This document shows positions 11,324 to 26,341 of a stretch of DNA of 27,902 nt, piece by piece. This stretch comes from Deltaproteobacteria bacterium TL4. Lineage in GTDB: Bacteria > SAR324 > NAC60-12. The stretch covers positions 1 through 27,902 of the forward strand of contig JBBCAX010000021.1 in assembly GCA_051382335.1 (NCBI GenBank), read 5' to 3'. Below the pieces are notes generated by a model. The model was not told where the DNA came from. It ran no database searches and saw only the letters and a list, made by a program, of their open reading frames with translations. How positions within the stretch are numbered: position 1 is the stretch's first letter; every line of letters starts with the position of its first letter. The position numbers and the translations under genes were made by a program.

Positions 11324-11435
11324 CGTGGGTCTTCCTTGATTCTTTTGAATTGCAAAGCGATTCGAATTCTACTATACGTCCCCGTGTGGTTTGTGTACTC
11401 ATTCTGATAAAAAGGATCTGACGGAAGGTAAAGAT

Positions 11436-11861
11436 ATGAAACAATGGAAAGGTGTTGTGGTGCTGGGTATGGTACTGTTACTGGCAGGAGTAGGGAATCC
11501 GACCTCAGCAAGAGCGGCAAAATTACAAATCGTTTTTGAAAATTCCTTATGGGGCGCAGCGATTGGCTGTGTCACAGGAATTGCGTATTGGGGACTGCAA
11601 GAAGAGGATACCTCGGAGATCCCGACCTTGTCACTGAGAGGTGCTGCGATAGGGGTATTTGGTGGAATGTTATTTGGATTTTATGAAGTGAAAAGTGGAG
11701 ATGCTGTTTTTGGGAAACACACTCCGGAAGAGCATGGCTTATTGCACTACGATTCTTTTTCGCAAACGTTGATCCTTTCTCCGGCGAGGCTTTTCGTCTC
11801 AACTCAAAACCATTCTTCGTCAAAAAATTTAAAAAGCACCCTGTTTTCCGCGACTTTTTAA
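11436..11861 (+). CDS. Hypothetical exported or membrane protein with two Gly-rich hydrophobic helices
   Basis: Signal peptide (MKQWKGVVVLGMVLLLAG...ARA) and repeated GAAIG segments (WGAAIGCVTG, RGAAIGVFGG). GGAAGG RBS before the ATG at 11436. It is not FliJ. Confidence 0.7.
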   Translation: MKQWKGVVVLGMVLLLAGVGNPTSARAAKLQIVFENSLWGAAIGCVTGIAYWGLQEEDTSEIPTLSLRGAAIGVFGGMLFGFYEVKSGDAVFGKHTPEEHGLLHYDSFSQTLILSPARLFVSTQNHSSSKNLKSTLFSATF

Positions 11862-11866
11862 GTAAG

Positions 11867-11893
11867 AAGAGAGCGCTGAACGCGCTCTCTTTT
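11867..11893. terminator. Bidirectional intrinsic terminator between convergent genes
   Basis: AAGAGAGCGC-TGAAC-GCGCTCTCTT perfect 10-bp stem, with T-rich flanks on both strands. Confidence 0.8.
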
Positions 11894-11906: not shown

Positions 11907-12494
11907 TTAATCCACTTGATTCGCTGCGGCTTTAAACGCATCCCAACCCACCATCAAGGGGCCCATGACTTTGTTCAAATAGGAAGCGTATCCTGATCCC
12001 AAAACCGCGCCCGCGATCACCGTGACACCTCCGGAAACCAGATCATTGAAGATACTCTTTCCTCCCGCGACCATTGCCAAATCAGTATCATTAAGCTCAC
12101 CTGTCGTGTTCGGATTTGCGGGGAGTATCAAATGAATCAACTTTTCAGAGTTCTCAAAAACTTTGATTTCAAGACGAGGCACAATGCTTCCCAACTCCTT
12201 TAACGCGTCTTTGGGAGAACGCAAGAGTCTTGATTTGTAGCCTTCATCTTCGTAGGCGTGTTTCATGACCTTTCCGGCAATTGTGCCAGTATTGATGGAA
12301 CTGGGGTTAACCTGACTTTTATCAAGCAAAACAAAATGCATCGTATCCAACGTATCTTCATGAACTGCCAGTGAAATTTCCTCTCCTAATTCAACTCCCA
12401 ATTCCGCAAGAATCGATCTGGGGTTGCTAACGAGTTTTTGTTTAAAATCCGGATCACTCCAAGTGCGTTGCACGATTTCTTCATATTTTTCCAT
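11907..12494 (-). CDS. NHLP (nitrile hydratase-like leader) RiPP precursor with a tandem-duplicated leader domain
   Basis: Two NHLP units (IVQRTWSDPDFKQKLVSNPRSILAELG...VHEDT...HFVL and VMKHAYEDEGYKSRLLRSPKDALKELG...VFENS...HLILP). These are followed by the double-glycine motif GELNDTDLAMVAGG and a 50-aa core. Strong AGAGGAG RBS. Confidence 0.88.
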   Translation of the reverse strand: MEKYEEIVQRTWSDPDFKQKLVSNPRSILAELGVELGEEISLAVHEDTLDTMHFVLLDKSQVNPSSINTGTIAGKVMKHAYEDEGYKSRLLRSPKDALKELGSIVPRLEIKVFENSEKLIHLILPANPNTTGELNDTDLAMVAGGKSIFNDLVSGGVTVIAGAVLGSGYASYLNKVMGPLMVGWDAFKAAANQVD

Positions 12495-12721
12495 GTGTTT
12501 CTCCTCTTCTTTTTTGAATTAACTATTCACGAATAAAATTTCCGCCGTTGATATGTAAATATTATTTTTATTTGGTTTTGTAAACCCAGTTTTTTAAGAA
12601 ACTCTGATTTTTATTGCATGAACAGCAAAATAATCATTCTTATCAGCAGATTGGTTTTTTTGAGAATTTCATTTTTTTTCAGGGCTGCTGCATGGGCACA
12701 TTACAAATTTCTACAACTTGT

Positions 12722-13504
12722 TCAAGTACATGTTTTATCAATTTCCGGTTTAAGCTGATTCTTCGCATAGTCAAGAGCCTGGAGCATCTGCTCCCGCCCA
12801 TCAATCAGGTCTGAGGAATCAATAGACCTCAGGTAAATTTGATGGGGCGCATGGTTCTGAATAAAAATCAATACATACTGAAATTTTTTATGGGTTAGCT
12901 GTTTCATCCCTTCAATATACCATGCCGCTTGAAAATCATAGGCGTAATGGCGAATTTTTCGCTTACAATTTGAGGGGCTGATCGACTGTGAAAATTTAAT
13001 ATCCACAATTTTTAGCGAGTCTTGAAGCAACAAATCCATGCGACCTTTGCATAGAATCCGGGTCTCAGGGTCTTGCCAGAAAATTGAAACTTCCGGTTGC
13101 CCTTGATTCAAAAGAGAGTTCAGTTCGGGATGGCTTTTGACAGCCTTCTGAATATTGAATAATTGATTCCATACATTGCTTGGCAATACGGTTTTACCTT
13201 GATGTTGTGCTTCAAAGGCTTCTCCTTGCGGCACGCTGCTACGCTCTCTTTGTGTGAAGCATTCGGGGGCTTTGACATAAAAATAATCAAAGTTTTCGGG
13301 TTCTAACAGCAGACAATGTCCGGCGTTGCCAAACAGAAAAGGCGGGGTTAGAAGCTGTCCAGGAGAAGGCAGGAGTATTTGTTGTGAATGAAGAAAATGT
13401 TTGGCCTGTGTTTGATTTAAGCCGGCTTCTGCTAGATAATGTTCAAAACCAATCCCTGTAAAGATTCCCTGTTTGAATGAGTGTTGAGACCTATAGACGT
13501 TCAT
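12722..13504 (-). CDS. PD-(D/E)XK nuclease, RecE/exonuclease VIII-like (DUF3799-type)
   Basis: FGNAGHCLLLEP, PEVSIFWQDPETRILCKGRMDLL, IVDIK and YAYDFQAAWY match the RecE C-terminal nuclease motifs. Confidence 0.85.
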   Translation of the reverse strand: MNVYRSQHSFKQGIFTGIGFEHYLAEAGLNQTQAKHFLHSQQILLPSPGQLLTPPFLFGNAGHCLLLEPENFDYFYVKAPECFTQRERSSVPQGEAFEAQHQGKTVLPSNVWNQLFNIQKAVKSHPELNSLLNQGQPEVSIFWQDPETRILCKGRMDLLLQDSLKIVDIKFSQSISPSNCKRKIRHYAYDFQAAWYIEGMKQLTHKKFQYVLIFIQNHAPHQIYLRSIDSSDLIDGREQMLQALDYAKNQLKPEIDKTCT

Positions 13505-24700: not shown

Positions 24701-26341
24701 ATGGATCCTATGGGTGATGATGATTTAGATTTTGATTTTGATGACTTGGATTTGGATAGTGACGATTCTGATGAGGCGGCTGGCAGCTCTGACGATACGG
24801 ATGTGGGCGAGCTGGAGGCCCCGGATTCCGACTTCGATTTTGATTTTGATGACAGTGGGGATTCGGCTTCAGCCTCACTATCCGGTGACAGCGATCAAGA
24901 AGAGGAACTGGATTTGGATGAGTTGGACCTTGACGAATCCTCAGACCTCATGGCGTCAGTAAAAGAACGTTCTGATACAACCATGGACATGGATTTTGAT
25001 GATTTCGATCTGGAAAGTGATGGAGACGCCATCTCAGACTTGACGCAAGACGCAGAAGATGATTTATCTTCAGAAGATGGTGACGATTTTTCCTTGGATT
25101 TGATGGACAGTGAGGAGGACAGTGAGGACCTCGGAACAGAAGAATTAGATCTTGATGATTTGGACTTGGAACAAGAGCGTGAAGAGTCTACAGAGGATTT
25201 GGATGCAAACGGAATGTTGGAGCAAGCTTCCTTGAATGAGGGTGACGAGGAAGAGGACACGGATTTGGAAGATTCTGATGATTTTGCGTTTGATGAGGAA
25301 GACGCTGATTCTGAAATAGGTCCGGGAGCCGAATCAGAAGATGCGGAAAGCTTCGATGATTTTGATTTGGATGAAGAGCTGGCGCCTGAAAGGGCTCCCC
25401 GGAAATCCCCCAGAACCGGTATCATGGATGAGGAATCGGCTCAATTTGATGTCGCTGGTGAAGCGGATGAGTTATCACAGGGCCTTGGAATAGAGACAGA
25501 AGTTGTTGGTGGAGGAACATCACCTGAAGACTCAGAACCCCTGATAGAGGACGAATCTTTGGAGTTGGGATCCTCCGACGAGTTGATGGATGGTATAGCT
25601 GAGAATGAAATGGGAACATTGGAATTATCTGACGAAAGTGCTGAAAATATTCCTTCTGAAGGCCTCTTGCTCGAAGATGAGCTGAGTTTTTCTGACGAAA
25701 CAGTACAGGAGTCGGATTTGGTATTAGACGAAAGCGGTTCCTTTGAGGAATCAGATGATGATTTGATGATGGACGAAGATTCTGAGGATATGGGTGACGG
25801 TGCGTTTGATCTAATGAAGGATGATTTAATGATGGACGAAGATTCTGAGGATGACAGTTCCGTGGAAGAGGCGTTAATGATGGACGAAGATTCTGAGGCT
25901 CTGGATGACAGTGCGTTTGGTTCGGAGGCAGAGGCGTTAATAATGGACGAAGACATGGAACTGGAAGCTGTTAGCTATCAAGCGCCCGTGGTGAAACCTC
26001 AAACCGCTGCTAAAAAAGCGACATCGCACCTTGTAACTGAATCCCCCTCAATCCCTCCTGCGGCCATTCCGGTTCCTTCTGCTGAAAAAGCGCGGACACC
26101 TGAAGTTGGAACGCAACTGTTGCTGAATGTGAATCACGAAATTGTAGTAGAAATCGGAAAAACGCAGCTAACTGGAGAGGAAATCACACAGATCACCTAT
26201 GGAAGTATCCTCGAGTTAAACAAAATCGCGGGAGAGCCTGTGGATCTGGTTTTGGATGGAAAAGTGGTTGCTCAAGGAGAAGTCGTCCTGATTAACAAAG
26301 AAAAGCTTGGTGTTCGGATTATTGGGATCACTCAAAGGTAA
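24701..26341 (+). CDS. fliN: FliN/SPOA-domain protein with a very long Asp/Glu-rich low-complexity N-terminus
   Basis: C-terminal LLNVNHEIVVEIGKTQL...GSILELNKIAGEPVDLVLDGKVVAQGEVVLI...GVRI is a FliN SPOA domain. The first ~430 aa are dominated by D/E/S/L/F. Confidence 0.8.
   Translation: MDPMGDDDLDFDFDDLDLDSDDSDEAAGSSDDTDVGELEAPDSDFDFDFDDSGDSASASLSGDSDQEEELDLDELDLDESSDLMASVKERSDTTMDMDFDDFDLESDGDAISDLTQDAEDDLSSEDGDDFSLDLMDSEEDSEDLGTEELDLDDLDLEQEREESTEDLDANGMLEQASLNEGDEEEDTDLEDSDDFAFDEEDADSEIGPGAESEDAESFDDFDLDEELAPERAPRKSPRTGIMDEESAQFDVAGEADELSQGLGIETEVVGGGTSPEDSEPLIEDESLELGSSDELMDGIAENEMGTLELSDESAENIPSEGLLLEDELSFSDETVQESDLVLDESGSFEESDDDLMMDEDSEDMGDGAFDLMKDDLMMDEDSEDDSSVEEALMMDEDSEALDDSAFGSEAEALIMDEDMELEAVSYQAPVVKPQTAAKKATSHLVTESPSIPPAAIPVPSAEKARTPEVGTQLLLNVNHEIVVEIGKTQLTGEEITQITYGSILELNKIAGEPVDLVLDGKVVAQGEVVLINKEKLGVRIIGITQR
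25754..25954 (+). repeat. Intragenic imperfect direct repeats encoding LMMDEDSE
   Basis: ATGGACGAAGATTCTGAGG occurs three times (~25769, ~25832, ~25880), with a degenerate fourth copy at ~25943 (LIMDEDME). Confidence 0.85.

Follow-up and report, generated by a model that had tools for sequence, protein, structure and literature searches.

A stretch of 27,902 nucleotides from Deltaproteobacteria bacterium TL4 (hereafter the window) carries a gene for a RiPP precursor with a leader built of two NHLP units. The gene stands apart from any maturation genes, which raises the question of what modifies the encoded peptide, what exports it and what kind of product would result.

A precursor gene alone in its window

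The precursor is a 195-aa open reading frame (ORF) on the reverse strand (11907-12494), identified from the ORF itself and a TIGR03793 search. A ribosome-binding site (GAGGAG; 12501-12506, reverse strand) lies 6 nt before its ATG, in line with a first-pass annotation of this DNA that had given the gene its own ribosome-binding site and its own terminator. A strong 10-pair hairpin (11867-11891) lies 3′ of the precursor stop (z −5.9 on the reverse strand, −3.9 on the forward strand) and separates the gene from a converging forward-strand ORF (11391-11861). This hairpin is likely a two-way terminator, and because its T run is better on the forward strand it may mainly serve the converging ORF. 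A terminator scan listed 0 sites, the hairpin being absent from its output, and the single promoter-like match was below chance.

RiPP maturase and peptidase transporter families were absent from the 8 window proteins scanned, as first described. Neighbouring genes encode flagellar proteins (by inspection), a PD-(D/E)XK-like protein, a pilin and a DnaJ-domain protein, and the remaining long ORFs are flagellar or housekeeping, by inspection only. The PD-(D/E)XK-like gene (12722-13504), which resembles DUF3799 and exonuclease VIII, lies upstream on the same strand as the precursor, with no link to it seen. Positions 24701-26341 encode a very acidic, low-complexity protein of 546 aa whose C terminus resembles, on inspection, the flagellar switch FliN domain. 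The label 'orphan' given to the precursor gene holds within the window and fails within the genome, where we found ten tandem-leader copies, an exporter operon and a LanM.

A leader of two modules

TIGR03793 matches the whole precursor with 115.7 bits against a cut-off of 50.9, in two stretches that each exceed the cut-off alone. Module 1 (about residues 1–66; 12297-12494, reverse strand) scores 54.1 bits at 12312-12488; it comprises three helices and two strands and has no Gly-Gly tail. Module 2 with its ELxDxDLxxVAGG tail (residues 67–145; 12060-12296, reverse strand) scores 65.8 bits at 12060-12281. The tail motif occurs once in the 145-aa leader, at its end, and is followed by a variable core, so the doubled leader with a cleavage motif after the second unit only was correctly recognized at first pass. 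Smith–Waterman alignment of the two modules gave a score of 64, whereas shuffled sequences averaged 23.1 (s.d. 4.4; 0 of 1,000 shuffles as high), and profile–profile comparison gave a probability of 98.3%; direct BLASTP of one module against the other returned no alignment. By these sequence comparisons the modules are homologous. With two modules over 145 aa, where the criterion for NHLP precursors is a single module of about 80–90 aa, the leader is a variant NHLP architecture.

AlphaFold2 modelled residues 1–130 confidently (block mean pLDDT 88–97) and the core poorly. The leader model aligns colinearly with the nitrile hydratase (NHase) alpha subunit, which likewise has two pseudo-repeats in one chain (PDB 4FM4 and others; Z 8.9, rmsd 4.9 Å over 125 residues), and more weakly with the single NHLPs 8TB1 and 9CJX (Z 4.7 and 3.9). 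A colinear match to NHase alpha residues 43–174 is also found in sequence. By contrast with NHase alpha, the precursor lacks the CxxCSC metal site; the NHase alpha model TIGR01323 scores 61.8 against a cut-off of 249.85, and TIGR03795 (NHLP-Burk) 21.2 against 41.

The best covarying residue pairs outside the tail all cross between modules (45–113, 45–121, 53–113 and 12–128). Pairs 45–121 and 113–53 change state together, each being either His-His or aromatic-Asn (p 1.6e-7 and 6e-8), a switch also seen in 50 sequences thinned to below 40% identity (p 0.025 and 0.002), these statistics being corrected only partly for relatedness; within-module pairs trend in the opposite direction. Together with the fold model, these patterns suggest that the two modules form one interlocked, pseudo-symmetric, NHase-alpha-like domain. 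Residues 45, 53, 113 and 121 (12129-12362) are four His positions at the predicted module interface; all four are His in 27 of 138 tandem leaders, against 10.7 expected if independent, and the four His were absent from 10 aligned single-module NHLPs beside GNATs. The interface His may possibly form a metal site or take part in polar–aromatic pairing.

In the DprE/DprM and MprE/MprC/SrpI systems (PMC12537861, PMC10858898, PMC12455567) the leader likewise folds as a helical bundle and ends in a flexible tail with L(X)4L, and in such NHLP systems LanM reads the folded part of the leader. The leaders described there have a single module, whereas covariation here joins strands of the first module to strands of the second. 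The suggestion made at first pass, that a tandem leader mimics a leader dimer, is doubtful since MprE7 is a monomer by SAXS (PMC10858898), although Os1348, an all-helical relative, is a dimer (PMC7726476).

A precursor family with a lysine at core position 1

Ten tandem-leader copies, 9 of them intact, are scattered over seven contigs of this genome (445 contigs, 100% complete, 2.6% contamination), with leaders of 138–145 aa and cores of 50–71 aa. The copy on contig C87 (G000:C87:31247-31693) is taken as a pseudogene because its tail and first core half are lost and the core motif is out of frame. All 21 TIGR03793 matches in the genome are accounted for by the ten tandem genes and a single broken remnant, and the genome search found no Nif11 precursor; these searches thus left no NHLP or Nif11 candidate other than the tandem precursors as substrate of the exporter, GNAT and LanM described below.

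In the window copy, Gly144-Gly145 (12060-12065, reverse strand) is the predicted C39 cleavage site, invariant in 80/80 aligned tandem precursors. The 50-aa core behind it (11910-12059, reverse strand) has no Cys, as has the whole 195-aa protein, and no Tyr-Gly, which agrees with its first description; it contains five Ser/Thr, has a GRAVY of 0.55 and a net charge of 0, and carries the clade motif Gly-Pro-Leu/Met-x-x-Gly at residues 178–183. Its first residue is Lys (Lys1, Lys146 of the precursor; 12057-12059, reverse strand), the predicted acylation site. Lys1 is present in 9/9 intact cores of the genome, which have a Gly-Pro motif in common and of which 5/9 have one Cys, and in 22/22 cores of the close clade, these 22 being kin and not independent. 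The window core is only 22–32% identical to four paralogue cores, and Lys1 is nevertheless kept; in a thinned set of tandem precursors Lys1 occurs in 13/50. Against its two closest paralogues the core has a pN of 0.20 and a pS of 0.82 and 0.65; across the Cys-free subfamily formed by this gene and two paralogues, pN is 0.04–0.20 and pS 0.61–0.82. Two paralogues have identical 59-aa cores at a pS of 0.61. Judged by these substitution rates, the cores are under purifying selection.

Export and maturation genes on other contigs

One NHLM C39 exporter operon is present in the genome, on contig C293, in the order GNAT (300 aa), ACP-like, TolC, HlyD, C39-ABC, ABC, binding protein and DUF7005. Its three exporter proteins exceed their cut-offs (TIGR03794 (HlyD), 394 against 156; TIGR03796 (C39-ABC), 1084 against 853; TIGR03797 (ABC), 935 against 709), and the C39 domain has its catalytic Cys and His motifs. 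The ACP-like gene (L013:2417-2656), between GNAT and TolC, has the Ser motif and scores under the NCBIfam cut-offs; no such gene was found in the 44 other GNAT loci described below, nor between GNAT and TolC in the corresponding operon of a related genome, G009. The combination of TIGR03793 with TIGR03794, TIGR03796 and TIGR03797 in a three-gene exporter, the lost NHase metal site, the paralogue expansion and the variable cores all resemble the NHLP/NHLM system of Haft et al. (2010, PMC2887384). In that system leaders average 87 aa and have a 63-residue deletion, whereas two modules here restore the NHase-alpha length.

Contig C114 carries a lone LanM (TIGR03897, 760 against a cut-off of 304) with intact kinase-side motifs and three-Cys zinc motifs. 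Directly before it lies a gene for a cyclic-nucleotide-binding protein (L014:1440-2408) that weakly resembles TIGR03896 (26.5 against 161 bits). YcaO had 0 matches in this complete genome, leaving an azol(in)e (TOMM/LAP) route unsupported.

The first-pass annotation had placed processing in trans, and it had made that reading depend on finding two NHLP domains and, in the genome, a maturase or C39 transporter. Two NHLP matches, an NHLM C39 transporter and maturase candidates were found, the enzymes on contigs separate from those of the precursors. The gene very probably encodes a RiPP precursor exported by the NHLM system. Several precursor contigs are just 2–4 kb long, which hides any linkage between precursors and enzymes.

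The DUF7005 protein at the end of the exporter operon (L013:12230-13309) has a counterpart in G009 (L115:1221-2384) that is 42% identical. Both have an HExxH motif and lie with the binding protein behind the second NHLM ABC gene; from the motif and position, DUF7005 could be a peptidase or an immunity factor. The term DUF7005 is absent from the literature searched.

Among 61 genomes (this one, G000, and relatives), tandem precursors occur in 3, G000, G009 and G008. The same 3/61 have a strong GNAT match, two further matches being weak and partial, and a LanM over the cut-off; kin genomes are not independent in such counts and incomplete genomes can hide genes. A C39-ABC is present in all three, the genomes searched for it. 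Tandem precursors were again found in 3 genomes only across a phylum sample of 88. Weak matches to a tandem profile in 19 relatives were set aside, as in the 17 relatives whose loci were read they proved to be genuine alpha subunits of NHase or, in one case, part of such a subunit.

G009 repeats the dispersed layout of G000, with 7 tandem precursors, all with Lys1, and operon pieces GNAT-TolC-HlyD-ABC1 and ABC2-binding protein-DUF7005. G008 has 1 tandem precursor together with GNAT, LanM and exporter in one cluster. Two cyanobacterial-named loci, L073 (Allocoleopsis) and L075 (Nostoc), encode a 154-aa tandem leader, Lys1, and LanM and GNAT in cis, L075 also an exporter; the LanMs of L073, L075, G000 and G009 form one clade in a quick tree of 12 sequences (SH-aLRT 100). 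Gene context within the wider tandem set was covered for G008, G009, L073 and L075.

A probable selidamide-type GNAT

Selidamides comprise kamptornamide (kspANRM), phaeornamide and the nostolysamides (PMC8784127, PMC13647313, PMC13060382), and side-chain fatty acylation of Lys or Orn defines the class (PMC13647313). As published, KspN and NpuN act best on Lys1 or Orn1, require a leader, which has to be their own, and work without lanthionine. The system described here shares with them an NHLP-type leader with Gly-Gly, Lys at core position 1, a class II LanM, a GNAT of about 300 aa with a P-loop in its N-terminal half, and a C39/ABC exporter possibly acting in trans, as suggested for ksp in PMC8784127. 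Neither the invariant Lys1 nor the selidamide-type GNAT had been noticed at first pass.

Over 298 aa, the C293 GNAT shares 33% identity (E 4e-60) with the corresponding enzyme of locus L071 from Kamptonema sp., which stands in this comparison for the characterised KspN, PhaN and NpuN sequences. One core at L071 fits each KspA residue given in the cited papers (Arg1-3, four Arg, Thr11, Asn12, Thr13, Cys19, Asn20), and because of this neighbouring core the L071 GNAT is probably a KspN orthologue. The locus (L071:536-8843) holds five Arg-Arg-Arg NHLP precursors, a LanM, the GNAT and one unclassified 377-aa ORF. Searching the G000 genome with ORF L071:1000-2133 gave no match.

A GNAT scan of named genomes yielded 44 loci, of which 12 have an NHLP- or Nif11-like precursor, 5 more have a LanM or NHLM transporter and 27 have neither. 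Going by this gene context, the GNAT family is not confined to RiPP systems. Several loci (L077-L085, L089-L091, L094, L099 and L105) have a selidamide-like GNAT domain joined to the end of DUF4915, in some cases together with TPR or GT2 domains, and no RiPP precursor nearby; the fusion was confirmed in 5/5 checked. A chlamydial group (L093, L101, L103, L104 and L108-L110) has the same GNAT family with no RiPP context. In a quick GNAT tree, whose deep forks are weak, the GNATs of G000 and G009 join three exporter-linked GNATs (support 93), outside the DUF4915-fused and chlamydial groups.

Complex prediction for the GNAT with precursor residues 1–160 scored 0.39, against 0.00 for the best control, with at least 60% contact agreement between runs and partner pLDDT of at least 69. 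Of 157 solved pairs, 116 reach the mark set for such predictions, as do 2 of 215 mismatched pairs. With scores limited to 0.60 or less, just 18 of the 157 solved pairs reach it, together with both mismatches; the modelled complex thus lends weak support to an interaction.

Mining for selidamides in PMC8784127 required precursor, GNAT and LanM in one cluster. These genes stand together in G008, L073 and L075 and apart in G000 and G009. On present sequence evidence the system would work like a selidamide system, as an unproven candidate member with unclustered genes. It differs from the characterised selidamides in its two-module, 145-aa leader (about 80–90 aa there), its cores of 50–71 aa (20–25 there), its ten precursors dispersed away from the enzymes and the ACP gene inside its exporter operon. 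It also includes a ringless member, as this core, being without Cys, would give a product with no ring. The earlier argument that the lack of Cys speaks against lanthionine chemistry holds for this copy and not for the family, in which 5/9 cores have one Cys and a LanM is present.

A proposed route to a linear lipopeptide

We propose that this is a trans-processed, selidamide-like precursor of which Lys1 would be acylated by the operon GNAT and which would be cut at Gly-Gly and exported as a linear lipopeptide, and we assign this reading a probability of roughly 0.6. The 145-aa leader would fold as one interlocked two-module domain that is read by both GNAT and LanM. As KspN and NpuN do, the GNAT would load the side chain of Lys1 with an acyl group, drawn either from acyl-CoA or from the neighbouring ACP. 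In the five Cys-bearing paralogues LanM would form a single (methyl)lanthionine ring, and on the Cys-free core it would at most dehydrate some of the five Ser/Thr. The C39-ABC protein would then remove the leader during export, cutting after Gly-Gly, to give a linear secreted lipopeptide of about 50 residues that is probably membrane-associated. Several findings weigh against acylation: precursor and enzymes lie on different contigs; the GNAT family also occurs outside RiPP systems; Lys directly after Gly-Gly is frequent in tandem precursors; the ACP-like gene falls under its cut-offs and is missing from the G009 operon; and in G008 the GNAT adjoins a tandem precursor that begins Ser-Ser and has its first Lys at core position 13.

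More tentatively, and with more doubt than belief, we suggest a dispersed library: ten precursors here and seven in G009, with a re-duplicated, interlocked leader, might feed one GNAT with a dedicated ACP donor, one promiscuous LanM and one exporter, yielding acylated peptides of 50–71 residues, some monocyclic and some linear. In such a library the leader, with its exchangeable His-His and aromatic-Asn pairs, might constitute a separate kind of recognition fold, served by a LanM clade of its own and perhaps containing a metal site formed by His. If the proposal is right, selidamide-type lipidation reaches cores that exceed the characterised ones two- to threefold in length and extends to products lacking a ring and to libraries of precursors acting in trans, which mining by gene cluster would miss, and a new set of acyltransferase, LanM and leader would become available for lipopeptide engineering.

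Alternative readings

The peptide might instead be exported by the NHLM system without a lipid, as a double-glycine bacteriocin-like product that is unmodified or merely dehydrated, with the GNAT acting on other paralogues, only acetylating, or giving immunity. The Gly-rich, hydrophobic core has a faint Bacteriocin_IIc match (E 0.076; 13.5 bits against a cut-off of 27.1). Lys directly after Gly-Gly is also frequent in tandem precursors generally (48/119), many GNAT loci (27/44) lack RiPP context and nostolysamide activity is independent of the acyl group (PMC13060382). However, in G000 and G009 alike the exporter operon begins with a GNAT, and Lys or Arg falls within the first three core positions in 20/23 precursors beside a GNAT, against 70/119 in the wider tandem set. 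We regard an unlipidated product as unlikely.

A library driven by LanM, in which a single Cys closes one ring and the Cys-free copy is either a linear variant with dehydrated residues or a by-product of little value left by the library's expansion, appears improbable. Cys is kept in 17/22 close-clade cores, at positions 6–11 in 16 of these, and the LanM has intact motifs and groups with LanMs of the cis tandem-leader clusters. Against this, the Cys-free subfamily is itself under purifying selection, with the pN and pS values given above, and a purely LanM-driven library leaves the GNAT in the exporter operon unexplained.

Epimerisation and methylation of the polytheonamide type, which the first-pass annotation had raised, would need radical SAM enzymes acting in trans on the long Gly/Val/Ala-rich, hydrophobic core, and is very improbable. 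Radical SAM matches number 43 in the genome, of which 7 were classified, including all 3 with SPASM. None of the 7 passed a RiPP radical SAM family cut-off, among family models that do not include a dedicated epimerase model. One of the three SPASM proteins is a sulfatase maturase, and the other two are enzymes that stay below the cut-offs and have gene neighbourhoods of a sugar type; none has a precursor nearby, and the best match to TIGR03975 (RiPP B12 radical SAM C-methyltransferase) in the whole genome has 107.8 bits against a cut-off of 281.85. Moreover, it is LanM and GNAT that stand beside the tandem precursor in the cis clusters L073, L075 and G008.

Scarcely credible is an NHase-alpha-derived protein that acts whole, for example as a membrane-anchored domain that binds a metal or a ligand: the colinear match to NHase alpha 43–174, the fold similarity and the up to four interface His would suit it, whereas the missing CxxCSC site, the conserved Gly-Gly tail, the variable cores behind a conserved leader and the exact co-occurrence with exporter and LanM speak against it.

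Origin and distribution of the doubled leader

In profile comparison, module 1 is nearer to NHase repeat 2 and module 2 nearer to repeat 1, the reverse of the NHase order. This reversal makes a renewed duplication of an NHLP more likely than the retention of an intermediate; a 'missing link' from NHase alpha to NHLP, which the colinear match had prompted, was set aside on the same ground. No description of a doubled NHLP leader was found in the literature searched, which covered few subscription papers and the main text of PMC8784127; the only printed fused NHLP pairs found, in Haft et al. (2010, PMC2887384), are NHLP-Burk (TIGR03795) beside YcaO enzymes. An Atlas search with homologue P0022 gave matches all under 0.9, a metagenome scan gave one locus, unrelated, and a search for an RNA holder listed none.

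Among the best 150 representatives at 50% identity, the number of modules is two in 138, three or four in 6 and one in 6, and a Gly-Gly motif between modules occurs in 0/138 of the two-module relatives. Named organisms with a doubled leader include Nostoc, Trichodesmium, Usitatibacter and Wallbacteria. If the proposed reading holds, this widespread two-module form becomes testable, both for which module LanM, GNAT and C39 read and for whether doubling alters specificity. The precursors with three or four NHLP modules are P0029, P0037, P0039, P0070, P0066 and P0101, and in the P0029 cluster, which has 90 members including one named Trichodesmium, the core is rich in Arg and Trp.
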